The position numbers were made by a program, and so were the translations under genes. The notes under the pieces were generated by a model that saw only the letters and a program-made list of their open reading frames with translations, was not told the DNA's origin and did not search any database. DNA of 64,000 bases from Methyloligellaceae bacterium (lineage in GTDB: Bacteria > Pseudomonadota > Alphaproteobacteria > Rhizobiales > CBDCYM01). This document shows positions 28,656 through 47,224 of this stretch, piece after piece. The DNA is taken from NCBI GenBank assembly GCA_965224165.1, contig CBDCYM010000011.1, positions 3,622,464 to 3,686,463 of the forward strand. The letters are read 5' to 3'. Positions within the stretch are counted from its first letter, which is position 1; each line of letters opens with the position of its first letter.

Positions 28656-29510
28656 TTAGATCATATCGTATTTGAAGGTCTCGCCTATTTTTTGAGCTGC
28701 CCGCTTCATGCTTGGCACAAATTTGAGGATCTGTGTTAAACTGGCTCGGACTTCTGGCGCTGAAACAGCAATACCGCCAACAACTTCGCCATTAGAGGTA
28801 ATCACGGGAACAGCCACACAGACCACCCCAGAAATAAATTCTTGGTCATCCGTCCCTATCATTCGATCCCGAATTTCCAGCAGCTCTTCCTCTAACAGTT
28901 TTTTATCTGTTACAGTTTTGGCTGTGTAGCGGTTAAGCGGCATAGTGTCGAGCAGCGGTCGCTTCACATCTTCCGGCTGCAAACTTAACAACAACTTACC
29001 ATTTGCCGTGCAATGGGCAGGAACACGACTACCTGCTTCGAAGCGAAGCCCTAAAGGCCATTTTGTTTCGACACGGTCGATATAGATGACCTCAATACCT
29101 GCAAGAATACCGAAATTACACGTCTCACCAAGTTGTTCTGAAAGGTTCCGTAAAATTGCATGACGAACATTGCGTGGAGCGGCCGCCGTAAGCGTATCTA
29201 AGGCAAACTTTACCAAGCGTGCGCCCTCGATATACCCTTTTTGCAAAGGGTCGCGTTCAATGAAACCAATATCGTTGAGAATACAGACAATGCGATGTGC
29301 GGTCGACTTGGTCATTCCTGTCGTTCGGGCAAGCTCAGTCGTTGATAGGGGCTTTGGGCTTGTTGTGATAGCTTCGAGGATAGAAAACGCTTTTCCCATT
29401 GCGCCAAGTTTCAGGAGCTGTTCAGCCCCCTCTCGGTGATCACCATCCGTTTTATTCTCCCCTTGAGCACCCGATATTGTCACTGAATTTTCTGCTTCAT
29501 TTTCTGACAT
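28656..29510 (-). CDS. IclR-family transcriptional regulator
   Basis: wHTH (LSTTELARTTGMTKSTAHRIVCIL) plus an IclR effector domain (GIAVSAP). Confidence 0.85.
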   Translation of the reverse strand: MSENEAENSVTISGAQGENKTDGDHREGAEQLLKLGAMGKAFSILEAITTSPKPLSTTELARTTGMTKSTAHRIVCILNDIGFIERDPLQKGYIEGARLVKFALDTLTAAAPRNVRHAILRNLSEQLGETCNFGILAGIEVIYIDRVETKWPLGLRFEAGSRVPAHCTANGKLLLSLQPEDVKRPLLDTMPLNRYTAKTVTDKKLLEEELLEIRDRMIGTDDQEFISGVVCVAVPVITSNGEVVGGIAVSAPEVRASLTQILKFVPSMKRAAQKIGETFKYDMI

Positions 29511-29523
29511 TTCTCAAAAGAAT

Positions 29524-29610
29524 TTGACGTCAATTGGCACTATGCAGTTGCCAACTTGTGAAATCAATCGCCTTGGAAAGAAAATACAGGATCATGGTTT
29601 GTTGACGTCA
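29524..29610. promoter_or_regulatory. Two copies of TTGACGTCA (palindromic core TGACGTCA) 78 bp apart
   Basis: Exact 9-mers at 29524-29532 and 29602-29610, in the region between the IclR gene start and the AT-rich T1SS leader. This is a candidate operator pair. Confidence 0.35.
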
Positions 29611-30006
29611 CATAATTAATAGACAGAAAATCGCAGACATACTTCAGAAGTGGTCACGACCATCAAAAAGAATCGAGAGAAAGGGTTATATATTAACATT
29701 ACAAAAAATCTAACATAGAAATATTATCAAATATTCCATGCAAATTGACTAAATAATTATCCAATCAAAATAAATTTTATTCTTGATAGAATCAAGTAAA
29801 ATTCACTATATTATACAAAAATTATAATAATATTATGATTTATATTTTATATAATACGGGAGATTTAAGAAAAATATACAAAAAAATAGAGAAATATTAA
29901 TTTTTTTGTTCCATTATAAGAAGTCAGATTTACCAAAAACTAGGTTTTCCCATTTAACAAGATCAGTAAGTATACGCAATTTTTCCGCGGAAAGGCCATC
30001 GCGGCA

Positions 30007-32523
30007 ATGGATGATGAGTTGGAAAGCAGTGCTAAACGTGATGAACGTCTCTCTATCCGAGAGCTTCGTAGCCGTTTGCTATCCAATTTTCCCACTTTGA
30101 AAGGAACCGGGCAAAGCCCGGAAGACACAAGCTCTAAACTTGATCATCAAGTTGAAGAATCTGAATTTTTTGAGCCCTGCGAGCCGGAGCAAGAAGACCA
30201 ATATCCAGAGACCGACGACAATGCTGAAGAAGCCCAACACGCTGAGCCTTATATCAAAAGAACAATAGGGGACCGTTTTTCCGCCCGGAAACTTGGTCAC
30301 CTTTTGTCGTCTATGCTTCCAAATTTATGGCGGTTTAAGCAGCGAACAGAAGATAAAAACCTGGAGCTTGATGATCAGGCTGAGCTAGATGCCGAACACA
30401 TACTCTGCGAATTAGATCAGCAGCTTGAAGAGATTGAGTCTGTCGATACAAATATTGAGACGACAGAAAATGATTCCAGCGCAAACGGCGAACCAAATTT
30501 AGAAAACGAAAATTTTGAAATCTATAATCAGACTGAAGAAGCTACGTCTCTAGAATCTGAAGGGTCTGACATAGAGGCTGCTGCACAAGATGATCATCAT
30601 AATCTGTCTGACCAGCAAACCCTTCCTGAACAAAGTAACCACCTCTCTGTTCGGGAGTTGCGCAATCATTTACAGTCTAATCTGTCGAAGTCAGGAGAAG
30701 AAGACCAAGAAACTAAAAACGAAAACCTTGAGTTTCATGAAGAGCCTGAGGAAGTTCAGTTTTCCGACGCAGATATCGAAACTGAAAAAGATGATCATGC
30801 AGGATGGTTTATCGGGCTATCGCATCCCTTAAAAAATGTGCGACACGTCCTCGCTGACTGTCTTGAACTTCCCCGTTCCGTCATCTTTTCTTCCTTTTTC
30901 ATTAATTTGCTTGGACTCAGTCTTCCCCTTGCAATTCTGCAAGTTTATGATCGTATTTTGCCTAACTCATCTCTAGAAACTTTATCGCTCTTGTTAATCG
31001 GGCTGATCGTAATCTTTTTGCTTGAAGGGGCGATGAAAATTGCCCGCGCCTATGTCATGGCCTGGGCGGCGGCGCAAAATAGTTACTATGCAGAGCTAGA
31101 AGCCGTTAGTAGAATCCTGAAATCGGATATAACAGAAATTGAGAAAAACCCTCCTAGTATTTGGATGGATCGTCTCGACGCGCTCGGCGAGCTAAATCGA
31201 TTCCACGGAGGTTCTGCAAAACTTATCCTTATCGACTTTCCGTTTGTCGCAATCTTCTTATCTGTAATTCTTTTCGTCGGTGGGACCTTGGTGCTCGTTC
31301 CGATCGCTGTCGTCGTTGGTCTCGGAATCATGATCATGAGGCGTGGAAAGAAATTACAAGACCTTCTGCAGGCGCGCGCCGAGCAAGATGGTAAGCGGTA
31401 TGATTTCATTACTGAATGTCTAGCCGGAATTCTAACCATAAAAAGCATGGCCATGGAGCCACAAATTCAACGCCGATATGAACGGCTTCAACAATTTTCT
31501 GCGGAGGTCAGTTATCGAACCATTCTGCATGGTGCCTCCATGCAATCAATTGGTAACTTCTTTGCAAATTTGACGATGATATTGGTGGTTTTTGTCGGTG
31601 CCTTTGCGGTTATGAACGGAACGTTAAGCATTGGGGCGCTCGCATGTTGCTCATTATTGTCCGGCCGGATGATTCAACCTGTTATTCGTGGAATTGGGGT
31701 TTGGACGGAAATGCATAATGTTGCTATCGCTAATGAGCGAGCAAGCGAACTTTTCGAGCTTCCGTCATCTGTTGATGATGTCATTGATGATCAAGCGATT
31801 GAACCGGTTGAATGTCACGGTGGGATTACTGTGCGGAATCTATGTTTCCGGCATGGAGAGAACCAATACTCTTCGATTGAGGATGTTACATTCAGCATAG
31901 CGCCCGGCGAAATCTTTGCTATTCGTGGTTCTGATGGCAGCGGTAAGTCCACACTTGCCAGAATCATTATGGGTGAGTTTATTCCCGAACGGGGCTCAGT
32001 TTATATTGACGGCCACAATGTTACGGCAATGCCATCTCATTCGCTCAGGAATTCAATATGTTATGTACCCGACAATGCCACTCCCTTTCGAGGCACAATT
32101 CTTGAGAACATCACGATGTTCCGGTCCGGTACAACGATTGAACAGGCGCGCCGAGCTGCTCAGCTCATCGGGATGGAAGAGGATATCAATCGTTTGCCGG
32201 AAGGTTATGATACCTTCATTGGTGACGGCATAACCGATATCCTTCCTGTAGGGCTCATCCAACGCATTGCTATTGCGCGGGCCGTTGCACAAAACTCGAA
32301 AATCCTCATTCTCGACGAAGCTAATGCGTCACTCGACCATGATAGTGATCGCCTATTTCGCGAAGGCTTACTTAGACTCAAAGGCCGAGTAACGATCTTT
32401 ATCGTTAGTAATCGTCCATCACTCTTGGAAATCGCAGATCATGTCTATTCTCTGGATAAAGAGCACAGTGATGACGACTTGTTAAATGAGGCACATGATG
32501 TGGGAGGCGAGACTAGTGCTTAA
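30007..32523 (+). CDS. Type I secretion ABC transporter subunit 1 (TMD+NBD) with ~290-aa acidic N-terminal extension and non-canonical NBD motifs
   Basis: T1SS-type TM1 (FFINLLGLSLPLAILQVYDRILP). Walker A GSDGSGKST and Walker B ILILDEA. Q-loop reads VPD rather than VPQ, signature reads LPVGL rather than LSGGQ, and the H-loop position reads SNR rather than HR. Confidence 0.85.
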   Translation: MDDELESSAKRDERLSIRELRSRLLSNFPTLKGTGQSPEDTSSKLDHQVEESEFFEPCEPEQEDQYPETDDNAEEAQHAEPYIKRTIGDRFSARKLGHLLSSMLPNLWRFKQRTEDKNLELDDQAELDAEHILCELDQQLEEIESVDTNIETTENDSSANGEPNLENENFEIYNQTEEATSLESEGSDIEAAAQDDHHNLSDQQTLPEQSNHLSVRELRNHLQSNLSKSGEEDQETKNENLEFHEEPEEVQFSDADIETEKDDHAGWFIGLSHPLKNVRHVLADCLELPRSVIFSSFFINLLGLSLPLAILQVYDRILPNSSLETLSLLLIGLIVIFLLEGAMKIARAYVMAWAAAQNSYYAELEAVSRILKSDITEIEKNPPSIWMDRLDALGELNRFHGGSAKLILIDFPFVAIFLSVILFVGGTLVLVPIAVVVGLGIMIMRRGKKLQDLLQARAEQDGKRYDFITECLAGILTIKSMAMEPQIQRRYERLQQFSAEVSYRTILHGASMQSIGNFFANLTMILVVFVGAFAVMNGTLSIGALACCSLLSGRMIQPVIRGIGVWTEMHNVAIANERASELFELPSSVDDVIDDQAIEPVECHGGITVRNLCFRHGENQYSSIEDVTFSIAPGEIFAIRGSDGSGKSTLARIIMGEFIPERGSVYIDGHNVTAMPSHSLRNSICYVPDNATPFRGTILENITMFRSGTTIEQARRAAQLIGMEEDINRLPEGYDTFIGDGITDILPVGLIQRIAIARAVAQNSKILILDEANASLDHDSDRLFREGLLRLKGRVTIFIVSNRPSLLEIADHVYSLDKEHSDDDLLNEAHDVGGETSA

Positions 32524-32548
32524 GTTTGGCGCTAGTCAGATATAGGAC

Positions 32549-34765
32549 ATGCAAAACCAAATCGAAAACCCGCAGACCTCAATCGACATGCCGAAAAATG
32601 GCGTTCACGCACTCTTAGACTTGTTGAAATCCACCTATATTTGCGTTGATGAGGAGCGAGTTGACGAAACGACACCGGCTGGGGCATGCCTGCGGCCACT
32701 GCTTGCCTCGCTTGAATGGGCAGGCGAAGCACGGCATTTGCAGGAATCTCTCCCCCATTTCGACGCATTAAACGACATTGATGGTCTTCGCGCCGTACTA
32801 GCTCGTCTAAACTTCGAGACCCACCAACAACGTGTGCATCTGGATGACCTTAACTCAGAAATGTTCCCTTGCCTTTTTATCCCAAAACGAGGGGAGTTAT
32901 GCGTTGTCTTATCCAGAGAGGCAAATGGTACTTATTTAATCTTTGATGGAGCGAGCCAGTCATTCCAAGAATTTATGCCCGCCAAAACCGGAGGCACAAT
33001 TTACCTGATCCGCCCTCATGATGTGAAAACGCAGCAGAAAAAAACAATGCGGTATGGCTGGCTCCAAACTCTCATAATAAAATTTCGGCGCACCTTCTTC
33101 ATTCTCTTTGGGCTTACGTTTGTCATTAACGTCCTTGCCCTTACCGTACCTATTTACGTCATGAACGTTTATGACAAGGCAATTGGCTCCAAATCTTTGA
33201 TGACACTTGGGTTTCTAACTGCTGCAATTGCGATCGTACTCGGGTTTGAAATGCTGCTTCGAACAATAAGATCGCAAGCAATTGCTTACCTTGGAACTCG
33301 CATTGAAACCCTGCTATCGGTCACGGCATTCCAACAGCTTTTGCATCTACCACTTGTCATGACTGAAAACGCACCAATTGGCGCACAGATTACCCGGCTA
33401 AAACAATTCGAATCCATTCGGGATGTTTTTTCTGGTCCACTCGCTTCGACAGTATTGGACCTACCATTTTCTCTTGTATTTCTGGGGGCTATTTTCGTTA
33501 TTGGCGGGGTTCTAGGATGGATACCTGTAGCCCTTATTGTGATCTATCTGATTATGGCAAGCATCACAATTCCGATCACGCGATATCATATAGATCGTGC
33601 AGGCGAGGCTAAGATTCAAAGCCGGAATTTTTTGATTGAACTTACAACAAAGTTCCGGGGTATTCGCAATAATACGGGGGCTGAGACCTGGATCAACCGT
33701 TTTAGTGGTGTTGCCTCTTCTCTTATCGCTTGTCAGTTTAAAGCCCAACAGACAAATTTCATTGTCCAGACTCTGGCCCAGGTGCTCGCCATGATAGCAG
33801 GTGCGGCAACGGTTGGGCTTGGGACACTAATGGTGCTCAATGGTGAGCTTTCAATGGGTGCACTTATTGCAATAATGGCCCTGATTTGGCGAATGCTTTC
33901 CCCCTTGCAGGCCGCATTATTAAGCCTGAATCGTTTAGGGCAAGTTATTGGAAGTTTTAGACAGATCAACCATTTCATGCGCCTGAAGGTTGAACGTATA
34001 CCGGGACAATTACCGACTTTTTACCGAGATTTTAAAGGCAAGATTTCAATGCATGGCATATCTTTGCGCTATTCATCGAAATCTGAACCTGCTCTGAGAG
34101 GTATAAATCTTCAGATCAACCCGGGTGAAGTCATCGCAATTACAGGGCCGAGCGGTGCAGGCAAATCAACTCTTCTTAAAGTGATGACACATCTCTATCA
34201 GCCTCAGGCCGGGGTCGTCATGATTGACGACCTGGATTTGCGTCAAATCGACGTCGCTGAACTAAGACATGCCATTGGCTATGCACCGCAAAAACCGGTC
34301 TTTTTCTACGGAACGATTGCACAAAATCTCAAGCTCGCTCACCCAACGGCAAGTGAGGAAGAAATTATTAATGCCCTTAAGAGCATTGGGGTATATGACG
34401 TCGTAAATAGCCTTGAAGATGGCATAGATTCCAGGATTCAAGGAGCCCGTGTAGAGCACTTCACAAGCGGATTTCTACAACAACTTATGCTGGCTAGAGC
34501 ATTTGTCAAAGATGCAAAAATTTACCTCTTGGATGAGCCCGGAACCAATTTGGACCATGCGGGAGACGAAGCATTGATACGAAAAATTAATTCTTTGCGC
34601 GGCCAGTCAACCGTTGTGATGGCCACACATCGCCCCAGCCATATGTGGCTTGCTGATCGTGTTTTCGTAGTCGTTCAAGGCACAATTGTAGGAGAAGGTC
34701 CGCCAGATGAAGTTGTTCCTGCTCTTATGAACAAAAGCCAAAAATGCGCTTTATCAAAGTCTTAA
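32549..34765 (+). CDS. Type I secretion ABC transporter subunit 2 with N-terminal C39-like domain
   Basis: ~170-aa N-terminal domain in the position of the HlyB/LssB C39-like domain. TMD (VINVLALTVPIYVMNVYDKAI). Walker A GPSGAGKST, Q-loop APQ, signature FTSGF (degenerate), Walker B IYLLDEP, H-loop ATHRPS. Confidence 0.85.
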   Translation: MQNQIENPQTSIDMPKNGVHALLDLLKSTYICVDEERVDETTPAGACLRPLLASLEWAGEARHLQESLPHFDALNDIDGLRAVLARLNFETHQQRVHLDDLNSEMFPCLFIPKRGELCVVLSREANGTYLIFDGASQSFQEFMPAKTGGTIYLIRPHDVKTQQKKTMRYGWLQTLIIKFRRTFFILFGLTFVINVLALTVPIYVMNVYDKAIGSKSLMTLGFLTAAIAIVLGFEMLLRTIRSQAIAYLGTRIETLLSVTAFQQLLHLPLVMTENAPIGAQITRLKQFESIRDVFSGPLASTVLDLPFSLVFLGAIFVIGGVLGWIPVALIVIYLIMASITIPITRYHIDRAGEAKIQSRNFLIELTTKFRGIRNNTGAETWINRFSGVASSLIACQFKAQQTNFIVQTLAQVLAMIAGAATVGLGTLMVLNGELSMGALIAIMALIWRMLSPLQAALLSLNRLGQVIGSFRQINHFMRLKVERIPGQLPTFYRDFKGKISMHGISLRYSSKSEPALRGINLQINPGEVIAITGPSGAGKSTLLKVMTHLYQPQAGVVMIDDLDLRQIDVAELRHAIGYAPQKPVFFYGTIAQNLKLAHPTASEEEIINALKSIGVYDVVNSLEDGIDSRIQGARVEHFTSGFLQQLMLARAFVKDAKIYLLDEPGTNLDHAGDEALIRKINSLRGQSTVVMATHRPSHMWLADRVFVVVQGTIVGEGPPDEVVPALMNKSQKCALSKS

Positions 34766-34808
34766 GCTAATTTTCCTATCATAAAAGCCGGTAGGGAAGT
34801 TGCACGTT

Positions 34809-36161
34809 ATGCGTACTGGGTGGAAATCATTAATCGATCGCCACGCTGGTGATGACACCATCACTGGTCAACGCCTTACTTTACCTGCAGCTCTAGAAGA
34901 TGGCCGGATTCCCGGTGCTCTGGGTCATTTATCCTATTTTGCCAGTGCTCTTATTTTGGCTGCACTTATCTGGGGATCAATCGCACAAATTCGTGAGCTT
35001 GCGATCACCCATGGTCAAGTAATTCCCTCCAGTTCGGTCAAGCTTGTGCATCATTTAGAAGGCGGAATAGTTGAAGATGTGCTTGCCAAAGAAGGACAGA
35101 TTGTCGAACAAAACGCACCGCTTTTGCATCTTCGCCCTACCGCAGCGAAAAGCGATTTGCGTCAGGCCCATGTGCGGGCCGCCCATTTGACATTGCAGAA
35201 AATTCGTTTTTCCGCGCATATCTCCGGTCAAACACCTGATTTCGGCGAACTTGGCAAGCGTTATCCCAAACTTGCGGAGGACGAGCTTGATGTTTTTTTA
35301 GCAACCCAGAAGCAGCTTGAGAAAGAAATACATATACTCCACACCCGGATAACACAGCGTGAAGTCGAATTAGAAGCGGCACTAAAAGAATTCGAAAGCC
35401 TTAGCAGGCAAGTTGATATTCAGAAGGAGAAACTTGAAATCCGTGAGAGATTACTCAAGGAAGGCTATACCTCACGGCGTGGTTATCTCGAAGCTAAGTC
35501 AGAATTTGAGAGCGCGAGGGCGCGCGCGATTTCTGCGGAGGGGCGATTAGAAGCAACACGGGAGCAGCTCACAGAAGCAAAAAGTCAGCTACCTAAGTTC
35601 AAAGCCGAAGCCCACAGCAAAACCTCTGAAGACAGAGCGAAAGTCGCAGCTGAACTTGCTGAACTCGAACAGTCCCTCTACAAACACCAAGACCGCGTAG
35701 ACCGTCTTCAAATTCGTGCCCCCGTTAGAGGCATCGTGCAAGAGCTTATTCCCCGAACAAAAAACGAAGTGGTAAAGCCAGGAGAACTTGTGGCTAAGGT
35801 TGTACCGCTTGATGAAGATGTCGTTGCAGAAGTGCAGGTCCAGCCAAAAGATATCGGCCATGTAAACGTTGGCGATGAAGCCGAGCTTAAGATCTCAACC
35901 TATGACCCCAATATTTATGGGGTTGTTAAAGGTACCGTCGAAAAGCTCTCTGCCACAACTTTTCAAAAAGAAAACGGTGAGCCCTATTACAAAGCAACGA
36001 TCAAGATTGATAAAAACCATGTTGGATCGGGTAAGACAAAAAAACTGATATTGCCTGGAATGGTTGTACAAGCGGATATTATTACTGGTGCAAAGTCCCT
36101 CGTAAGATACTTACTCAAACCAGTTTACCGGTCGCTGAATGCAGCCTTCACCGAAAGGTAA
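34809..36161 (+). CDS. HlyD-family type I secretion membrane fusion protein
   Basis: N-terminal TM, a long coiled-coil region, a lipoyl/beta-barrel C-terminus and the typical C-terminal LLKPV motif. The ATG at 34809 is preferred over the TTG at 34800. Confidence 0.85.
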   Translation: MRTGWKSLIDRHAGDDTITGQRLTLPAALEDGRIPGALGHLSYFASALILAALIWGSIAQIRELAITHGQVIPSSSVKLVHHLEGGIVEDVLAKEGQIVEQNAPLLHLRPTAAKSDLRQAHVRAAHLTLQKIRFSAHISGQTPDFGELGKRYPKLAEDELDVFLATQKQLEKEIHILHTRITQREVELEAALKEFESLSRQVDIQKEKLEIRERLLKEGYTSRRGYLEAKSEFESARARAISAEGRLEATREQLTEAKSQLPKFKAEAHSKTSEDRAKVAAELAELEQSLYKHQDRVDRLQIRAPVRGIVQELIPRTKNEVVKPGELVAKVVPLDEDVVAEVQVQPKDIGHVNVGDEAELKISTYDPNIYGVVKGTVEKLSATTFQKENGEPYYKATIKIDKNHVGSGKTKKLILPGMVVQADIITGAKSLVRYLLKPVYRSLNAAFTER

Positions 36162-36392
36162 AAAAAACCACTCATTTCATATGTGCCCGACATAGCTAAA
36201 CTTGATCCAATTACACTGCAGAGTATTAAGAAATCTTCTTACTCAAATGAAAATAAACATTTTTTTCCATTAATAAAATTCTTGGCAATCGCACAGCCTA
36301 AAGCAACCCTAGTTACCTACCGTTAAGTATCGAATGCTAGCTTAATACCTTCAAATGCAAATCAGCATCTTATCAAATATTTGGCAAAATTA

Positions 36393-37490
36393 ATGTCGCA
36401 CACGCAAAAAGAGCTCGAAGAGCTCCTTCAATTGGCACAAGAGCCTTCAAGCGATAAGCGTCGTGCGCTACTACGCCGGATCACGGACGTTTTTCTATAT
36501 GATGCCGAGTCCCATAGTGACAGCCAATCGGAATGTTTTGGCGACATTATGCATAAGTTGGCTTACGACCTGGAGCAACAGGTCCGTGAAGAGCTTTCGA
36601 GCCGGTTGGCCGAAGAAAAAAATGCACCTCATCACCTCATCCGTGCCCTTGCCAATGATGAAATTGAGGTTGCAAAACCGGTATTGGAAAAAAGTGTCGT
36701 TCTCACCGAGGACGATTTGATTGAGGTTTCTAAGAAGCGTGACCAAGAACATCTTCAGGCAATCACAGTCCGCCCCGATATCGGAGAGAACTTATCTCGT
36801 GAGCTTGTTAAACGTGGTGATGACACCACTGTAGAGAAATTGCTTCGCAACGAAAACGCCAAAATTGCAAGCGAGACGGTTGAGGAAATTGCAGAGCGGG
36901 CTAAGAAGTCTGAGATATTGCAGGAACCTCTTATTGGCCGCTCTGAGGTAACTCAGAATATTCTTGAGGATCTGTATTCGCATGTTACAGATGAGCTGAA
37001 ACAAAAGATTCTGGCAGCGTGCGAAGACATCGATGAAAGTTCAATTGAACCTGTCCTCGACACAGTCGCATCGCAATTAGCCCAAGCGAAGATTGAAACC
37101 ATCGAGCAGCTTATTGAAGGTTTGGCTCGCAAAGGAGCATTGACGGAAAACCAACTCATCAAGTTCCTGAAAGACCGCAAGGCGATGGAATTTCTCCTAA
37201 CGCTCTCTCATATAACCGGTCTAGATGTTCAAACGACACGTCGAATCATTGAGGATAAGAGTGGTAAATCTCTGATTATTTTGTGCAAGGCTCATCGCAT
37301 GAGCCCAATGACCTTTAAGGAAATAGCGATGTCTTCGTTGACCGGCATCGCTGAAGAACCAAGCAAAATGTTGCCGCTAATTACTATCTATAACCGTTTT
37401 GATACGCAAAACGCCCAACGTGTTATGCGCTTTTGGCGTACCCGAAAACACACTCTAGAACAAGAAAAAGAAAAAGCGGTTTCTGCCTGA
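36393..37490 (+). CDS. DUF2336-like helical-repeat protein (acidic, no signal peptide)
   Basis: Recognised only by general resemblance to alphaproteobacterial DUF2336 proteins (RRALLRRITDVF...). It lies between the MFP and TolC genes. Confidence 0.5.
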   Translation: MSHTQKELEELLQLAQEPSSDKRRALLRRITDVFLYDAESHSDSQSECFGDIMHKLAYDLEQQVREELSSRLAEEKNAPHHLIRALANDEIEVAKPVLEKSVVLTEDDLIEVSKKRDQEHLQAITVRPDIGENLSRELVKRGDDTTVEKLLRNENAKIASETVEEIAERAKKSEILQEPLIGRSEVTQNILEDLYSHVTDELKQKILAACEDIDESSIEPVLDTVASQLAQAKIETIEQLIEGLARKGALTENQLIKFLKDRKAMEFLLTLSHITGLDVQTTRRIIEDKSGKSLIILCKAHRMSPMTFKEIAMSSLTGIAEEPSKMLPLITIYNRFDTQNAQRVMRFWRTRKHTLEQEKEKAVSA

Positions 37491-37600
37491 GTTCCATTTA
37501 ACTCTAAAACCTCTCTCTTCTTCTGACCAATCAATCATCTCTAATATCCGATGTTTTTAATAGTCAGTGCATCTGGGCATCTCTAAATACTCCCTTCGGA

Positions 37601-37675
37601 CCATCCACCACTCCCTACCATCCGCCTAATTATCGCAGAATATGGTGGATGGTAGGGGATGGTGGATGGTTTTTA
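37601..37675 (+). terminator. Long hairpin followed by a T-run (probable terminator or structured element)
   Basis: ccatccaccactccctaccatccgcc pairs with ggtggatggtaggggatggtggatgg across a 17-nt loop, followed by TTTTT. Confidence 0.5.
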
Positions 37676-37850
37676 GAGGTCTCCATCTGGGCATATTTGA
37701 TCTATTTTGGGACATTCTCCCCTCTCATTTAATCATTTTTAAACCCAGAAAGCGGATGCTCAAGTGACAACCAGTAAACGCTAATACCAACTGGTTATTT
37801 TGTGGGGTGAGGTATGCTTGTCAGTAAGTGTGCCTGTATAGGAGTTGGGC

Positions 37851-39305
37851 ATGGGGTGGTTTGTAGAAGAGTGGCGTGGGTGGACTGTACCAATTTGGCA
37901 GTTTGCGTCAAAAATTAGTTTTCCGCTTTTAATTGTTACTCTATGTTTTTTGATGATATCAGTTATGCCCCGTCCCGGGCATACAGAAACCTTAAAGCAG
38001 GCGCTAAACCTTGCTTACCGGCACAACCCTACAATTCTTGCAGAACGCGCCCGCCAACGGGCCACAGATGAAGGTGTATCGCAAGCTATTTCCGGTTGGA
38101 GACCAACTGTTAGTGTAACGGGCCACGTTGGTCGCAATAAAGAGCGGGTCACTCCTCCTACTACGCATTCCGATCTTGATCAAACGAGTGTCGGCATTTC
38201 ATTATCACAACCCATCTTTCGTGGATTCCGCACGATCAATGAGACACGGCGTGCAGAAGCTCAAGTACAAGCCGGCCAGGGACAGCTTCGTGATACAGAG
38301 CAAAATACACTTCTCTCCGCGGTTAAAGCCTATATGGACGTGTTGCGAGACAGACAAATCTTAAGGTTACGCCGCAGCAACATCAATTTTCTCGCTAGGG
38401 AATTAGACATCAGTAAAAGCCGTTTTCGTGAAGGTGAAAGGACCCGGACAGATGTCGACCAGGCCAGGACAAGATTGCATCAAGGGCGCGCTGAATTAGC
38501 TGAGGCAAAAGCAAATTTGCATGCAAGTGAAGCTACTTATGCTTCCATAATTGGTCACTTACCCAGAAAACTTTCATCACCAAAGTCGATCTCAGCACTG
38601 TTGCCAAAACATTTACAGAGCGCAATTGTTATTGCCACTGCAGAAAATCCACTCATTCTAGCTGCTAATCACAGAAAAGACGCAGCAATGCGTGACGCTG
38701 ATGTTATTCGTGGTGAGTTGCTCCCCACTGTTTCCCTTGATGCCTCTTATCAACGTGACCACCATCCTAACCGCTTTTCCGATAGGGAAGATAATGGGAC
38801 AATTTCATTACGTTTTTCTATGCCTCTTTATAAATCCGGCGAAACATATTCACGCATTCGCCAAGCGAATGCGACCGTAGAACAGCGAACCCAAGAACTT
38901 GCCAATACGCGAAGCCAAGTCAAAGCCTCTGTCATATCTGCTTGGCAACGCAGACAAGCTGCTAAAAGTCGTATCCGTGCAGCAAAGCGTGCCGTCCGTT
39001 CGGCAAAAGCTGCGGTAAAGGGCATTCGAATAGAGGCAAACGCAGGCGAACGTTCGGTTTCTGACATATTGGATGCGCAGGGGGATGTGGTTAACGCTGA
39101 AGTCGAGTTGACCAATGCTAGGCGTGATTTCGTTGTAACCGGCTTCTCGCTCCTAGCAACACTTGGACAACTCACTGTCGATCATCTTAAACTTGATGTT
39201 GAGGCTCATGAGCCAAATCGCAATTTAAGGGCAGTTCGCTATCAGCCCATTGGCGAAACCCCTGGAGGATTTATCACCACTGTTACTCGGGCAAAAGGCA
39301 ATTGA
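37851..39305 (+). CDS. tolC: TolC-family outer membrane channel
   Basis: ETLKQALNLAYRHNPTILAERA start of the mature protein, two repeated halves of OEP type, and a long signal-like N-terminus. Confidence 0.85.
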   Translation: MGWFVEEWRGWTVPIWQFASKISFPLLIVTLCFLMISVMPRPGHTETLKQALNLAYRHNPTILAERARQRATDEGVSQAISGWRPTVSVTGHVGRNKERVTPPTTHSDLDQTSVGISLSQPIFRGFRTINETRRAEAQVQAGQGQLRDTEQNTLLSAVKAYMDVLRDRQILRLRRSNINFLARELDISKSRFREGERTRTDVDQARTRLHQGRAELAEAKANLHASEATYASIIGHLPRKLSSPKSISALLPKHLQSAIVIATAENPLILAANHRKDAAMRDADVIRGELLPTVSLDASYQRDHHPNRFSDREDNGTISLRFSMPLYKSGETYSRIRQANATVEQRTQELANTRSQVKASVISAWQRRQAAKSRIRAAKRAVRSAKAAVKGIRIEANAGERSVSDILDAQGDVVNAEVELTNARRDFVVTGFSLLATLGQLTVDHLKLDVEAHEPNRNLRAVRYQPIGETPGGFITTVTRAKGN

Positions 39306-44608: not shown

Positions 44609-47224
44609 ATGAAATGTAAATATTTTGGGTTATTTCTAGGGAGTTTAGCCACCTTCACACTATTTGCACCCTGCGCACTGCACGCACAAGACTCCAGCGG
44701 CTATTATCGTATTCCCTATAACAATGGCACAAAGGTAAAGGTGACAAGAGATCACGCCAGCCATGCACCAGTCGAAAACCGCATCGACATGGTGGGGAAG
44801 GACGGAGGCGGTGAGTATGCGATCGTTGCCGCAGCGGACGGTGTAATCCGCATGATAGAAGATAGCTTCGATAAACGTCAGAACAGCAGTGAAGTCTCTC
44901 AGTGCAATAACAATTATGTCTGGATTGAACACGACAATGGGGAATGGACCAAATATTCCCACATGAAAAAAGGCTCCACCACCGGCCCCGGATCATTTGG
45001 CGCAAATTTAAAAGTAGGCGACCGCGTCAAGGCCGGCGATTTTCTCGGCTGGGAAAGCAATGTTGGTTGCGCCTCTGGAGATCATCTGCATTTTGAGGTC
45101 GCAAAAATCGCTTCAACAGCAGAAATCAATAGTGTTGGTGGTTTTGTCGACAGCAGCAGTAAAAACCGCATTCCACGTGTTTGTGCTGTGCCTGGATGGA
45201 AATACAGAGATGGCAGAACTTATACCGCCGTTGGCTTCGGCCTCCCTATTTATCGAGACAAGGATTACAAGGGGGCGGCAAGAGCCTTCATTGGTACAGT
45301 CAAAAACTACCCAGACCTGCACGGCCTTGGTTTTGGCGACAATGTTTCTTCGATACTCACCCCATGCCCCGATAAGCTCTACGCCATTTTTTATGAGCAC
45401 AAAAATTATGGCGGACGCGCTCTCTATTTTGATGGCTTTGGTTCTTTCGATGACACAGGTCGTTTTGGCTTTAACGACAATATTTCATCGATGAAGCTTT
45501 TCACCAAACCGCGGACAGGCATTAGCGTCTTTGAGCACGACAAATATCGCGGCAAATCAACCTTCCTGTCAGGTTCAATTGCAGACCTAAACGCGCTTGG
45601 CCTAAACGATCGTATCTCTTCAATCAAAACCCACGGCCAAGTCAAAGTGCAGGTCTATGAGCACAAAAACTTCCAAGGCAAAAGCCGAACCGTAACCAAA
45701 TGGACGCAAAACACCAAGTCCATCGATATGAACGACAATATCTCGTCCATTAAATTTATACCCCCACCTTTTAGAGTCACCAAAGCATCGTTGAAATTCA
45801 AAGTACACAAAAGCAATGTTTGTAAGAAAAAGATAACCATAGAGACCGAGTTCGAAACCAATCAAGCAGGCACGGTCGTCTATAGGCGCGAGCGCCAGGG
45901 CGGATCACCCAGTGGTTGGGTGTCGCTTAAATCAAAGAAAGTCGGCTCAAAATTCATCGCGAAAAAGACGGAAACGCAGTGGGTCACAGATCTTGATCAA
46001 ATGCGCCGTGTAAAGGTCAAAGATAGCCCAATCGTATCTGCGTGGGAGCATTATAAAGTGAAATGCCCACCATTTAAGATTACGGATGTAAGCTATAGTT
46101 TTCGCGCTGAGCCGGGATACAAATGCCCGCGTGAGATCACAGTCCTCGAAACTTACAAAGCCAATGGCCCGGGCCAGTTTTTGCGCCGGAGAGAACGCCA
46201 GGGCGGACCGCCCAGCGAGTGGATTAAAACAGATGTCAAATTACAAAGAACGACATATAGCGCAACATTTCAAACGAAACAGAACGTAGGTGAGATATCT
46301 CAAACCCGCCGCGTTGTTGCACGATCGGTGACGGGTAAGAACCGGCCGGCAAAATATTTTAAGAAATCATCCAAATGGGTGAAAATGCAGGTCAAGTGCC
46401 TGGACATAAAGCAGTCCGCCATCATTTTTGACGGTAAAGACACCGGGACATGCAAATTCAAGACAAAAGTGAAACTGCGCGTCAATGCTGATATGCAGGC
46501 AGACCTGCCGTATCAGTTTGATTGTGCTGACGGACAATCAAAAAAAGGTACGTTCTCTATCAAAAAAACCGGAAAGAACACTTTTATCGGTGTTGACACT
46601 GTAAAGCTGAACGTCACGAAAACCGGCAAACAAGCTTGCGCCTTAAAAGCTGATTTGGGCAAAGGGCTGAAAACTCTGACCTTCCAGGGTAAAGATTTTA
46701 CTTGTAAGGAAGTCCTTGATGCCGCGATCTACATTGATGGTCCTGCCAAGGGTAAATGTCCAACAGATCTACCGGTGAGAGTGAGAGTAAATGCACGCGA
46801 CCGTCACGCCGTTGGCTTTAATCTGAAATGCACAACGGGTGAAAATTGGAACGGTAAATTGAAGGTCAAAAAAACCGGGCCTAATACGTTCATTGGGGTG
46901 ATGACCAAAAAAATCAAGGTCAAGAAAAGCGGTAAAATTGCCTGTGCGCTGAGAAGCACGCTGACGGGCAAATCCAAGGTCATCGCTTTGCGTGGCAAAG
47001 ACTATCAGTGCGCGTCTAGGGTGATTCCGACACCTCCAGGAAAAATTACAACAGGTGATCAACCTATAAAGAAAGTACGCTGTATCGGCGGAAAGCCAAA
47101 AGGTAAGAGTTGCCGATGCCCCAAGGGCGCAAAATTGCGCAAGCTAAAGGTCAATACCTATCGGTGCTTCTGCCCGAGTGGTACGAAACTCTTGCGCGGC
47201 ATCTGTGCAAAGCCAGCCGCATAG
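44609..47224 (+). CDS. Secreted mosaic protein: M23 peptidase + 4 beta/gamma-crystallin Greek-key motifs + 4 Cys-bracketed modules + Cys/Lys tail
   Basis: Signal peptide (FTLFAPCALHA-QD). M23 motifs HAPVENRID and SGDHLHFEV. Greek-key motifs YRDKDYKG, YEHKNYGG, FEHDKYRG, YEHKNFQG, each followed by ND-x-ISS. Repeated ~100-aa modules from about 45764 to 47000. Confidence 0.85.
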   Translation: MKCKYFGLFLGSLATFTLFAPCALHAQDSSGYYRIPYNNGTKVKVTRDHASHAPVENRIDMVGKDGGGEYAIVAAADGVIRMIEDSFDKRQNSSEVSQCNNNYVWIEHDNGEWTKYSHMKKGSTTGPGSFGANLKVGDRVKAGDFLGWESNVGCASGDHLHFEVAKIASTAEINSVGGFVDSSSKNRIPRVCAVPGWKYRDGRTYTAVGFGLPIYRDKDYKGAARAFIGTVKNYPDLHGLGFGDNVSSILTPCPDKLYAIFYEHKNYGGRALYFDGFGSFDDTGRFGFNDNISSMKLFTKPRTGISVFEHDKYRGKSTFLSGSIADLNALGLNDRISSIKTHGQVKVQVYEHKNFQGKSRTVTKWTQNTKSIDMNDNISSIKFIPPPFRVTKASLKFKVHKSNVCKKKITIETEFETNQAGTVVYRRERQGGSPSGWVSLKSKKVGSKFIAKKTETQWVTDLDQMRRVKVKDSPIVSAWEHYKVKCPPFKITDVSYSFRAEPGYKCPREITVLETYKANGPGQFLRRRERQGGPPSEWIKTDVKLQRTTYSATFQTKQNVGEISQTRRVVARSVTGKNRPAKYFKKSSKWVKMQVKCLDIKQSAIIFDGKDTGTCKFKTKVKLRVNADMQADLPYQFDCADGQSKKGTFSIKKTGKNTFIGVDTVKLNVTKTGKQACALKADLGKGLKTLTFQGKDFTCKEVLDAAIYIDGPAKGKCPTDLPVRVRVNARDRHAVGFNLKCTTGENWNGKLKVKKTGPNTFIGVMTKKIKVKKSGKIACALRSTLTGKSKVIALRGKDYQCASRVIPTPPGKITTGDQPIKKVRCIGGKPKGKSCRCPKGAKLRKLKVNTYRCFCPSGTKLLRGICAKPAA

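Follow-up and report, generated by a model that had tools for sequence, protein, structure and literature searches.

The locus analysed here probably encodes a protein-export machine whose motor consists of two unlike ABC subunits, of which one is likely to be catalytically dead. A complete type I secretion system driven by an ABC1-ABC2 heterodimer is the best explanation of the locus as a whole, and we hold it with good confidence. Five genes on the forward strand, in the order ABC1, ABC2, HlyD-type adaptor, DUF2336 protein and TolC-like protein, were identified from the list of open reading frames, all full-length and free of frameshifts. They lie exactly where the original prediction had placed them, and profile scans matched their families (Table 1).

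The triad ABC1-ABC2-HlyD represents a widespread alphaproteobacterial family. At least 564 matches were confirmed in species-representative genomes, and among the matches listed all were Alphaproteobacteria or unclassified. No description of the family was found in the literature searched. Dozens of orthologous loci show this gene pair with these motif deviations, so the features of the locus are not a matter of chance.

Table 1. Features of the locus. Positions refer to the window, the whole 64-kb stretch of DNA analysed.
Feature	Position	Strand	Basis or remark
IclR-family regulator gene	28656-29510	-	divergent from ABC1
Divergent intergenic region, IclR gene/ABC1	29511-30006	.	very A+T-rich
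ABC1, whole ORF	30007-32523	+	ABC_membrane and ABC_tran (Pfam)
ABC1 N-terminal extension, residues 1-288	30007-30870	+	acidic, low-complexity
ABC1 core, six-helix transmembrane domain and degenerate nucleotide-binding domain	30871-32523	+	Pfam, motifs
ABC1 Walker A			GSDGSGKST, intact
ABC1 Q-loop			VPD, Gln to Asp
ABC1 signature			LPVGLIQR, aligned to LSGGQRQR
ABC1 Walker B			ILILDEA, intact
ABC1 H-loop			SNRPS, His to Asn
ABC2, whole ORF	32549-34765	+	ABC_membrane and ABC_tran (Pfam)
ABC2 C39-like domain (CLD), about residues 1-175	32549-33070	+	AF2 model, Foldseek
ABC2 core, transmembrane domain and nucleotide-binding domain	33071-34765	+	family scans, motifs
ABC2 Walker A			GPSGAGKST, canonical
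ABC2 Q-loop			APQ, canonical
ABC2 signature			FTSGFLQQ, non-canonical
ABC2 Walker B			YLLDEP, canonical
ABC2 H-loop			THRPS, canonical
HlyD-family type I secretion periplasmic adaptor (membrane fusion protein)	34800-36161	+	TIGR01843, Pfam HlyD_3
DUF2336-family cytoplasmic protein	36381-37490	+	Pfam DUF2336, 1e-57
Long imperfect hairpin, DUF2336-TolC spacer	37600-37670	.	32-nt arms, 84% complementary, 7-nt loop
TolC-family outer-membrane channel	37845-39305	+	TIGR01844; Pfam OEP, two repeats

The two ABC subunits

Both ABCs were classified with HMMs, as had been proposed, and matched type I secretion ABC models best, in every case below the cut-off. TIGR03375 (cut-off 693) was the best NCBIfam match of ABC1 with 373 bits and the best curated match of ABC2 with 496 bits, and TIGR01846 (cut-off 725.55) gave 299 and 346 bits, respectively. 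No NCBIfam model for a type I secretion ABC gave either protein a score above its curated cut-off, which counts against the explanation preferred here. The same scores would suit a tripartite ABC pump with a small molecule, lipid, glycan or peptide (bacteriocin) as its efflux substrate, in place of protein secretion, as would the generic ABC similarity to MsbA-type, CydDC-type and bacteriocin exporters and the absence of an adjacent substrate gene. We regard such a pump as the least probable of the readings considered. The top matches of both ABCs are three type I secretion ABC models, whereas the NHLP bacteriocin models reach about 210-240 bits against cut-offs of 709-853; the adaptor (TIGR01843, 331 bits, cut-off 208.65) and the TolC-like protein (TIGR01844, 328 bits, cut-off 225) exceed their type I secretion cut-offs. 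Like HlyB, ABC2 carries a C39-like domain; in ABC2 this domain lacks the canonical catalytic Cys required for leader peptide processing. Among the conserved neighbours in relatives, giant RTX/cadherin proteins predominate.

ABC1 and ABC2 are 23% identical. Their motifs were read from the translations and compared with those of HlyB, RtxB and RtxE by alignment, which showed all the deviations first noted in ABC1 and the degenerate FTSGF signature of ABC2 to be real and not misreadings. The core of ABC1 contains six hydrophobic segments, and its N-terminal extension holds 75 Asp+Glu versus 24 Lys+Arg by composition count. A short motif is duplicated in the extension (LSIRELRSRLLSNF at residues 15-28 and LSVRELRNHLQSNL near residues 213-226), and imperfect 39-nt repeats occur within its coding stretch. 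The extensions of ABC1 homologues vary in length and many begin with a similar motif, e.g. ESVEALQDKLRDAY; alignment of the homologues to ABC1 starts only at about residue 290. A C39-like domain is absent from ABC1 and from its homologues.

The N-terminal C39-like domain predicted for ABC2 was borne out by a fold match to solved C39-like domains. With an AF2 model of mean pLDDT 83, Foldseek returned 3B79 at the top, followed by 3ZUA (HlyB CLD) and 7SGR, with a probability of 1.00 each. The domain has a papain-like fold in which Cys and His are missing at the canonical catalytic positions. The position of the catalytic Cys probably corresponds to Pro43, with which helix 43-54 opens; four residues on, in the same helix, is Cys47, which is nearly invariant. 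The expected catalytic His, about 78 residues past residue 43, would fall within ELCVVL.

Pairing of the subunits and decay of the ATPase motifs

The ABC1 and ABC2 genes are kept together in 64 of 64 related loci in which both are complete. The order ABC1-ABC2-HlyD was present in all related loci extending far enough, the adaptor following the pair in 58, and stop and start codons frequently share 4 nt. Single-chain fusions in that order (ABC1-CLD-ABC2) occur in other bacteria, e.g. Azospirillum and Gallionella, as proteins of about 1300-1440 residues with an ABC1-like N-half and a C-half made of the CLD and an ABC2-like part. One such fusion is annotated on pAB510c of Azospirillum sp. B510, beside an HlyD gene and a divergent gene for a 5519-residue Ig-like protein.

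The phylogenetic placement that had been suggested was carried out. One clade joins ABC1 with the fusion N-halves, the other ABC2 with the fusion C-halves, each at 100% bootstrap. The two are sister clades with mirrored internal branching, and together they are split from HlyB, RtxB, RtxE and a single-ABC Azospirillum system, again at 100% bootstrap.

Two separate homodimers, sharing or competing for the adaptor and TolC and serving different substrates or with one of them a regulator, would accord with the fact that most characterised type I secretion ABCs are homodimeric, including the top solved relative HlyB (7SGR, 8DCK), and with the intact Walker A and Walker B of ABC1. This arrangement is nevertheless very unlikely. 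Neither site of an ABC1 homodimer would have the Q-loop Gln, the H-loop His or a canonical signature, and in close relatives the Walker A Lys would be missing as well; moreover, the genes are never apart in the 64 complete loci, single-chain fusions occur in several lineages, and the phylogenies are mirrored.

The degenerate signatures to which attention had been drawn are real, but they are not particular to this genome, both subunits being non-canonical (LPxGxxQR type) across the family. LPxGxxQR is nearly invariant in ABC1, and the ABC2 signature is variable. ATPase residues of ABC1 decay sporadically within the family, and its losses at the Q-loop and H-loop are the sole lineage-specific motif deviations. 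The Walker A Lys is retained in 119 of 120 ABC2 proteins versus 96 of 109 ABC1 proteins (in ABC2 of all 65 pairs), the Q-loop Gln in 82% versus 58% and the H-loop His in 82% versus 61%. Of the 65 pairs, counted per genome, 12 were intact on both sides and 21 on neither; in 31 only the ABC2 side was intact, and in 1 only the ABC1 side. The loss of catalytic residues is strongly one-sided, with ABC1 alone degraded in 31/65 and ABC2 alone in 1/65. One live and one dead site is not universal in the family, because ABC2 too deviates at the Q-loop, catalytic Glu or H-loop in 21/65 genomes. The signature at the presumed active site is also non-canonical, Pro replacing the phosphate-contacting Ser. 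Both points count against the preferred explanation. The original proposal, an obligate heterodimer that is asymmetric and has one or more non-catalytic ATP sites, is nevertheless supported by the pairing, the overlaps, the fusions, the mirrored phylogenies and the one-sided decay.

Cargo and neighbouring genes

No cargo gene had been seen near the locus, and none was found anywhere in the 64-kb window, a further point against the preferred explanation. The window contains no GGxGxD-bearing ORF (the sole six-frame match, at 26087 on the minus strand, is out of frame), and tblastn with the cargo proteins of related loci gave no match in it. For the window the cargo thus stays without a candidate, as first stated; for the family it does not, since the proposed synteny survey identified a usual neighbour. 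A giant cadherin/Ig/RTX gene lies divergently upstream of the ABC pair in 31 of 65 related loci, its domains including Cadherin, Big_9, Cadherin_4/5 and a C-terminal HemolysinCabind. IclR and enoyl-CoA hydratase genes occupy the upstream site in which relatives carry the giant gene. The syntenic relative L002 has HerA-like, GNAT, formyltransferase and enoyl-CoA hydratase genes upstream in common with this locus.

An orphaned, decaying locus, with the machinery intact, the cargo gene lost and the Q- and H-loop losses of ABC1 due to relaxed selection, is unlikely in our estimate. It would agree with the empty window and with L002, which likewise has no adjacent cargo gene. Among the proteins returned by a search with the cargo N-terminus of the close relative L016, all of them <725 residues, none was from this genome's 4.23-Mb contig. 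ABC1 of this genome and its closest relatives is the most degraded of the family. However, five full-length ORFs without frameshifts and all catalytic residues of ABC2 are intact, and unlinked cargo is normal for the family, since about half of its loci have no adjacent cargo gene. In the relative L001, ABC1 is even more degraded, with the Walker A Lys lost, and the cargo gene is still retained upstream.

The operon promoter presumably lies between the IclR gene and ABC1; because promoter-like hexamers there were not commoner than in shuffled sequence, its location is one that we infer. The adaptor has one N-terminal transmembrane helix, with a hydrophobic segment at residues 39-57. Gaps of 220 nt and 355 nt flank the DUF2336 gene, whose product scored 141 bits with the NCBIfam SpbR model (cut-off 400). 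Just 2 of 80 related loci (L001 and L018) show linkage between a DUF2336 gene and the ABC pair; the gene is probably a passenger outside the secretion machine. The hairpin in the spacer that follows may be a terminator or a REP-like element separating transcription units. Linkage of a TolC gene with the ABC pair was seen in 7 related loci, mainly of the closest Hyphomicrobiales relatives.

Proposed mechanism and comparison with known systems

We infer that ABC1 and ABC2 physically heterodimerise, and likewise which of the two sites hydrolyses ATP, what the CLD does and what cargo this genome has. The mechanism may be depicted as follows: The inner-membrane motor would be a heterodimer of two ancient paralogous half-transporters, working with the adaptor and the TolC-like channel encoded downstream. 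ABC2, with its CLD, transmembrane domain and presumably competent ATPase domain, would contribute the single catalytically active ATP site, completed by the LPxGxxQR signature of ABC1, and its CLD would be the docking point for unfolded substrate. ABC1, with a putatively disordered acidic N-terminus, a transmembrane domain and a degenerate ATPase, would provide the second half of the translocation pathway. Its Walker-side site, here without the Q-loop Gln and H-loop His, would face the variable ABC2 signature and most likely bind ATP without hydrolysis, as a structural or regulatory clasp like that of TM287/288, TmrAB and TAP1/2. By analogy with orthologous loci, the substrate would be a surface adhesin, a very large acidic protein of cadherin/Ig repeats with RTX repeats at its C-terminus, whose gene, if still existing, would lie outside the window.

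HlyB (7SGR, 8DCK) is the closest solved structure and TIGR03375 (LssB/LapB-type) the closest curated model. ABC2 shares the HlyB layout of CLD, transmembrane domain and ATPase domain, its adaptor and TolC partners belong to the families found in the HlyB/HlyD/TolC haemolysin system and the LssB/LapB-type systems for RTX adhesins, and the substrates of relatives are similarly large repeat proteins with a C-terminal RTX region. These systems have a single ABC gene, whose product forms a homodimer with a canonical ATP site and a CLD in each half; the present locus has two genes, two non-canonical signatures, a single CLD for each pair and a decaying ABC1 site.

NHLP-type bacteriocin export (TIGR03796, TIGR03797, TIGR03794) also combines two ABCs, one with an N-terminal peptidase-type domain, and an HlyD-type protein. 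The NHLP ABC models gave 212-238 bits and the adaptor model 33 bits (cut-off 156), the domain here lacks Cys at the canonical catalytic position, and no NHLP or double-glycine precursor gene was found near the locus.

With TM287/288, TmrAB and TAP1/TAP2 (reviewed in PMC7756269) the locus shares adjacent genes for two unlike half-transporters and a substituted Walker-side site facing the non-canonical signature of the other subunit. The exporters of that group act alone in the inner membrane on small substrates or peptides, without adaptor, TolC or CLD; their active site has a canonical LSGGQ in place of the LPxGxxQR at the presumed active site here, and they have typically lost the catalytic Glu that ABC1 retains.

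The parallel to MARTX RtxB/RtxE drawn in the original prediction holds for the use of two ABCs. Vibrio MARTX secretion (RtxB, RtxD, RtxE and TolC) likewise has two different ABC genes, one adaptor and TolC; an RtxB/RtxE heterodimer has been proposed (PMC4316617), and the operon is divergent from a very large RTX-repeat substrate gene (PMC3034196; also the pR99 annotation), an arrangement seen in about half of the loci of this family. The likeness is one of analogy and not orthology, because ABC1 and ABC2 lie apart from RtxB and RtxE, in which Walker A, Q-loop, LSGGQ, Walker B and H-loop are all canonical. RtxB shares 43% identity with RtxE, and either of them 25-27% with ABC1 or ABC2; the MARTX gene order is B-D-E as opposed to ABC1-ABC2-adaptor, and, unlike in MARTX, just one subunit here carries a CLD. 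Judged by the ABC1 and ABC2 clade, which excludes RtxB, RtxE and HlyB at 100% bootstrap, the duplications behind the two systems are independent.

Gene content and family assignment of the locus

ORF calls and Pfam/NCBIfam scans bore out the originally predicted order of five co-directional ORFs: two unlike ABC genes (ABC1 and ABC2) followed by genes for an HlyD-type adaptor, a DUF2336 protein and a TolC-like protein. The earlier observation proved real and its interpretation largely right; its likeness to the Vibrio MARTX system holds as an analogy only. In the NCBIfam scan the models for a type I secretion adaptor (TIGR01843) and an outer-membrane channel (TIGR01844) were both passed.

Positions and properties of the features of the secretion locus and of nearby elements in the window
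Feature	Position	Orientation or location	Properties
A+T-rich stretch	29660-29960	5′ of ABC1	extremely A+T-rich; overlapping palindrome at 29807-29856
ABC1	30007-32523	co-directional with the other four ORFs	838 residues; ABC_membrane and ABC_tran (Pfam)
ABC1 N-terminal extension	30007-30870		residues 1-288
ABC2	32549-34765	co-directional with the other four ORFs	738 residues; ABC_membrane and ABC_tran (Pfam)
HlyD-type adaptor	34800-36161	co-directional with the other four ORFs	TIGR01843, 331.1 bits (cut-off 208.65)
DUF2336 protein	36381-37490	co-directional with the other four ORFs	Pfam DUF2336, 195.7 bits (cut-off 34.6)
Hairpin	37600-37670	DUF2336-TolC spacer	imperfect; 32-nt arms 84% complementary; 7-nt loop; GGTGGATGGT-like units
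TolC-like protein	37845-39305	co-directional with the other four ORFs	TIGR01844, 327.9 bits (cut-off 225.15)
M23 protein	44609-47224		871 residues; M23 peptidase domain, beta/gamma-crystallin repeats
Adjoining protein	47551-49602		683 residues; no Pfam match

The HMM classification proposed for the two ABCs gave type I secretion subfamilies as the best models, with every score under its curated cut-off. For ABC1 and ABC2 alike the top three in the NCBIfam scan were TIGR03375 (LssB, ranked first), TIGR01846 and TIGR01842. The LssB/LapB-type model TIGR03375 (cut-off 693.1 bits) scored 373.1 bits for ABC1 and 495.7 for ABC2, and the HlyB-type model TIGR01846 (cut-off 725.55 bits) 299.1 and 346.4 bits, respectively. 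The models of NHLP bacteriocin export, TIGR03796 and TIGR03797, were far from reached by the two proteins (207-238 bits against cut-offs of 709-853), as was the NHLP adaptor model TIGR03794 by the adaptor (32.9 bits, cut-off 156.2).

The genes on both flanks were unrelated to the secretion genes in the Pfam/NCBIfam scans. Upstream are genes for an IclR-family regulator (minus strand), an enoyl-CoA hydratase, a formyltransferase, a GNAT acetyltransferase and a HerA-like ATPase, and downstream those for a 146-residue membrane protein, prfC and a Uup-type ABC-F protein. An Rfam scan of the window (1-64000) found no family at gathering score and detected no rRNA or riboswitch, and promoter and terminator scans gave sites no more numerous than in shuffled sequence. 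The window has a G+C content of approximately 46%, and the A+T-rich stretch 5′ of ABC1 may be a regulatory region, or a rearrangement scar at the position where relatives carry a giant gene.

Related loci were surveyed by calling ORFs in 80 fetched loci carrying ABC1 homologues. Only 2 of the 80 had a DUF2336 gene linked with the ABC pair, and for this reason DUF2336 was rejected as a component of the secretion system; we treat it as a passenger gene. TolC was linked in 7 of the 80. The DUF2336 protein is not an equivalog of SpbR (NF052659, 141 bits against a cut-off of 400), the cytoplasmic cell-cycle protein of Caulobacter (CC2323). Between the window and the related locus L001 (L001:6672-7790) DUF2336 was the best conserved of the five proteins, with 67% identity compared to 54-61% for the secretion components, and a conservation of this kind would fit a housekeeping role unrelated to secretion. 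The gene is separated from its neighbours by 220 nt on one side and 355 nt on the other, and the 355-nt spacer holds an imperfect hairpin, possibly a terminator or REP-like element. The TolC-like gene plausibly encodes the channel of the ABC1/ABC2 system, and its product may also serve other pumps.

Motifs and domains of ABC1 and ABC2

Translation and alignment with HlyB of E. coli and RtxB and RtxE of V. vulnificus showed all of the predicted motif readings to be correct. The motifs are listed below together with the conservation of the key residues among homologues. Each of the two ABC proteins has six hydrophobic segments and the adaptor has one, at its N-terminus.

Nucleotide-binding motifs of ABC1 and ABC2 and the number of homologues in which the key residue is kept
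Motif	ABC1	ABC2	Key residue	Kept in ABC1 (n = 109)	Kept in ABC2 (n = 120)
Walker A	GSDGSGKST	GPSGAGKST	Lys	96	119
Q-loop	VPD (Gln to Asp)	APQ	Gln	63	98
Signature	LPVGLIQR (aligned to LSGGQRQR)	FTSGFLQQ			
Walker B	ILILDEA	YLLDEP			
H-loop	SNRPS (His to Asn)	THRPS	His	66	98

Pfam Peptidase_C39 gave no match on ABC2 at E 1e-3 or better. The C39-like domain (CLD) predicted at the ABC2 N-terminus was recovered at the level of structure: an AF2 model of the N-terminal 180 residues (45-sequence alignment, pLDDT 83) has a papain-like fold, and its best solved-structure Foldseek matches were 3B79 (E 3e-6), 3ZUA, which is the CLD of HlyB, and 7SGR, with probability 1.00. From the model and the alignment, the position of the catalytic Cys at the start of helix 43-54 would be occupied by Pro43, and the expected His position would fall within the sequence ELCVVL. 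A nearly invariant Cys47 is found four residues, or one helical turn, downstream of Pro43.

ABC1 has no CLD. Its first approximately 288 residues form an acidic, disordered low-complexity extension with 75 Asp+Glu against 24 Lys+Arg, and the sequence of this extension is not common to the homologues. Within it a short amphipathic motif occurs twice, as LSIRELRSRLLSNF at residues 15-28 and as LSVRELRNHLQSNL near residues 213-226. A similar motif, for example ESVEALQDKLRDAY or DTVKNLRSRLMESY, opens many ABC1 homologues whose extensions are otherwise unrelated. The duplicated motif may be a docking helix that replaces the absent CLD.

Distribution, pairing and asymmetric decay in the family

ABC1 homologues number in the hundreds. 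A scan of one genome per species confirmed at least 564 matches, and among the matches listed all were from Alphaproteobacteria or unclassified metagenome-assembled genomes (MAGs). The alphaproteobacterial groups listed were Hyphomicrobiales, Rhodospirillales, Roseibium/Stappiaceae, Magnetospirillum, Terasakiella, Thalassospira, Emcibacter, Kordiimonas and Sphingomonadales. In every locus of sufficient extent among the 80 fetched, ABC2 came immediately after ABC1, and in many cases the two overlapped by 4 nt; an HlyD-type adaptor was found in 58 of the 80, usually directly 3′ of ABC2. The window locus is no one-off oddity, and is a member of a large and poorly annotated ABC1/ABC2/adaptor family. 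The two ABCs remain under the family cut-offs, and database entries give them generic or misleading names ("peptidase domain-containing ABC transporter", "LtxB"). With a dedicated model, annotation would improve in hundreds of genomes, and the giant adhesins associated with these systems in Alphaproteobacteria from sea and soil would be flagged.

Single-chain fusions also exist: in several database proteins, 1300-1440 residues long, the N-terminal half best matches ABC1 and the C-terminal half matches ABC2 from the CLD onwards. One annotated fusion is the 1363-residue "ATP-binding cassette domain-containing protein" on plasmid pAB510c of Azospirillum sp. B510, with an HlyD adaptor gene after it and a divergent gene for a 5519-residue Ig-like protein opposite. 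The two distinct half-transporter genes are always together or fused, as in heterodimeric ABC exporters, and the conserved pairing argues from gene order that both ABCs would be required.

In one MAG locus (L079:11638-19567) ABC2 is in three fragments over approximately 8 kb, probably a gene disrupted by insertion. In eight loci from Rhodospirillales MAGs (L036, L040, L041, L057, L066, L071, L076 and L080) ABC2 is approximately 950-1080 residues long and starts approximately 200 nt downstream of ABC1, pointing to an additional N-terminal region ahead of the CLD. These eight are without an adjacent giant cargo gene and have two to three co-directional upstream ORFs of approximately 270-420 residues, the printed representatives of which have signal-peptide-like N-termini.

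The phylogenetic placement that had been proposed was made by neighbour-joining (546 columns, Kimura distances, 100 bootstraps). ABC1 together with the fusion N-halves formed one clade, ABC2 together with the fusion C-halves formed another, and the two clades together were separated from HlyB, RtxB, RtxE and a single-ABC Azospirillum system, all three with 100% bootstrap support; in this tree the pair is sister to HlyB and RtxB/RtxE. The internal branching of the two clades is mirrored, as would be expected of co-inherited partners. Two derived characters unite them: one residue is inserted ahead of the signature, and the H-loop is followed by H-R-P-S, not H-R-L-S.

The signature of ABC1 is a nearly invariant LPxGxxQR (L in 98, P in 96, G in 103, Q in 107 and R in 82 of 109 homologues), and that of ABC2 (n = 120) is variable, with P, S or T in position 2 and G, A or S in position 4. 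Pairs were also scored genome by genome (n = 65), an intact side being one with all of Lys, Gln, Asp-Glu and His in place. ABC2 alone was intact in 31 pairs, both sides in 12, neither in 21 and ABC1 alone in a single pair, and the Walker A Lys of ABC2 was kept in all 65. The catalytic substitutions thus lie mostly on the ABC1 Walker side and in the ABC2 signature, as in degenerate-site heterodimeric exporters. Such a distribution is what one would expect from selection for hydrolysis at one site and freedom to decay at the other. The former site would consist of the ABC2 Walker side and the ABC1 signature, and the latter of the ABC1 Walker side and the ABC2 signature.

ABC1 of the window, with its Gln to Asp and His to Asn changes, is together with its closest relatives at the degraded end of the family range, and in some of these relatives the Walker A Lys is lost as well. 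The presumed active site also deviates, since its signature Ser is replaced by Pro, giving LPVGL here and LPxGxxQR family-wide and not LSGGQ. Heterodimeric degenerate-site exporters have a canonical consensus site, whereas the corresponding site in the window, which the ABC1 signature would complete on the ABC2 side, is not fully canonical. In 12 loci (L023, L026, L029, L031, L039, L045 and L052 from Roseibium/Stappiaceae, and L044, L049, L050, L060 and L072) ABC2 deviates and ABC1 is also degraded. The ABC2 changes there are Gln to Glu/Asp in the Q-loop, Asp-Glu to Asp-Asp/Asp-Asn in Walker B and His to Tyr/Gln in the H-loop, and the giant cargo genes are kept though neither ATP site looks canonical.

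Cargo, proposed mechanism and relation to known systems

The original prediction saw no substrate near the locus. This holds for the window, and for the family the proposed synteny survey gave a usual neighbour. Clustering of neighbouring ORFs in the 80 loci revealed one dominant conserved neighbour, a very large gene divergent from ABC1, which was present upstream of ABC1 in 31 of the 65 loci having at least 1.5 kb of upstream sequence. The complete proteins are 1051-2347 residues long and those ending at a locus edge exceed 3200. Their repeats are of the Cadherin, Cadherin_4/5 and Big_9 types, lectin-type domains occur in some, and HemolysinCabind (RTX) repeats lie towards the C-terminus. 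This is, judged from domain content, the profile of a type I-secreted adhesin, and makes them candidate substrates. The N-terminal parts of these giant proteins (for example L018:3575-9742:-, L061:4757-9565:- and L009:1-2239:-) share a short conserved motif of the approximate form [AP]-N-[LI]-H-[LYF]-G-[ST], for example NPNLHYGSR and ANIHLGSRN, located approximately 50-100 residues in, behind an acidic disordered stretch. A role in recognition or retention that is specific to the ABC1/ABC2 secretion family is conceivable.

In the window the position of the cargo gene is taken by the IclR and enoyl-CoA hydratase genes. A search confirmed that the 64-kb window has no ORF with in-frame GGxGxD, and tblastn with all cargo proteins of the related loci found nothing in it; no substrate bearing RTX repeats or a C-terminal secretion signal was found there. 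The related locus L002, in which the upstream genes of the window are in synteny, is likewise without an adjacent cargo gene. L001 has the cargo gene upstream and HlyD-DUF2336-TolC downstream as in the window, with 54-67% identity over the five proteins. Since the cargo gene is adjacent in only 31 of 65 related loci and absent beside L002, unlinked cargo is common in the family. By analogy with the related loci, the cargo in the source genome, if kept, would presumably be of the same kind. The N-terminal 420 residues of the cargo of a close relative (L016), searched against a set of 5.8 billion proteins, returned nothing from the 4.23-Mb contig of the source genome; all matches were of less than 725 residues and to cadherin repeats only.

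Three other proteins of the window were considered as cargo and rejected. The M23/beta-gamma-crystallin protein and its neighbour at 44.6-49.6 kb are not candidates because both have Sec-type signal peptides and are lysine-rich/basic. Both end in similar Cys-rich C-x-C-P-x-G-x-K repeats. The 146-residue ORF after TolC encodes a two-helix membrane protein.

The proposed mechanism may be depicted as follows: The inner-membrane component would be an ABC1-ABC2 heterodimer, the unfolded substrate would be bound by the single CLD of ABC2, and the adaptor, with its one N-terminal transmembrane helix, would link the heterodimer to TolC. We infer that ATP would be hydrolysed at the site of ABC2 Walker and ABC1 signature, and that nucleotide would be held stably at the site of ABC1 Walker and ABC2 signature. 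The scheme builds on what is shown for gene content, motifs, fold, co-occurrence, fusions, phylogeny and asymmetric conservation; the heterodimer, the use of the two sites and the nature of the cargo in the source genome are its inferred parts. Tentatively, and with somewhat less than even confidence, we propose an undescribed class of type I secretion machine, widespread in Alphaproteobacteria as an obligate heterodimer and fused elsewhere into a single "full-length" chain, with one CLD and one hydrolytic site, both signatures remodelled to LPxGxxQR, and a second site that decays to the point where even the Walker A lysine is lost. If true, a transporter would need no more than one CLD and one live ATPase site to export megadalton adhesins, and the "degenerate site" principle known from heterodimeric ABC exporters would extend to tripartite protein secretion.

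Within a limited literature search no description of the ABC1/ABC2 family was found, and the RtxB/RtxE type was the only two-ABC type I system. Degenerate ATP sites and tripartite systems have each been reviewed, and the reviews consulted name no heterodimeric type I secretion ABC that has such a site. No solved structure was nearer to ABC1/ABC2 than HlyB.

The usual account of type I secretion is that of a symmetric HlyB homodimer. To our knowledge RtxB/RtxE of the MARTX system is the only textbook exception, with two canonical ATPases. The original comparison with MARTX stands for the presence of two ABC genes and one adaptor; orthology to RtxB/RtxE is refuted by identity, tree and gene order. 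With the proteins of V. vulnificus plasmid pR99 as the reference for RtxB, RtxD and RtxE, RtxB and RtxE are 43% identical to each other, ABC1 and ABC2 only 23%, and either of the latter is 25-27% identical to RtxB/RtxE. RtxB and RtxE have canonical motifs throughout (LSGGQ, Q-loop Gln, H-loop His), unlike ABC1 and ABC2, and the MARTX gene order is B-D-E, whereas that of the window is ABC1-ABC2-adaptor. An rtxHCA operon with a MARTX toxin is absent from the 64-kb window. The low identity and the differing motifs and gene order indicate that the duplication behind the two-ABC family was independent of that in MARTX, older and much more asymmetric, and the resemblance of the two systems is one of functional analogy. 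In ABC1 a natural and widespread family has lost the substrate-docking CLD and is progressively losing catalytic residues, and with one subunit in this state the family offers ready material for asking what number of CLDs and of hydrolytic sites is required by a type I system.
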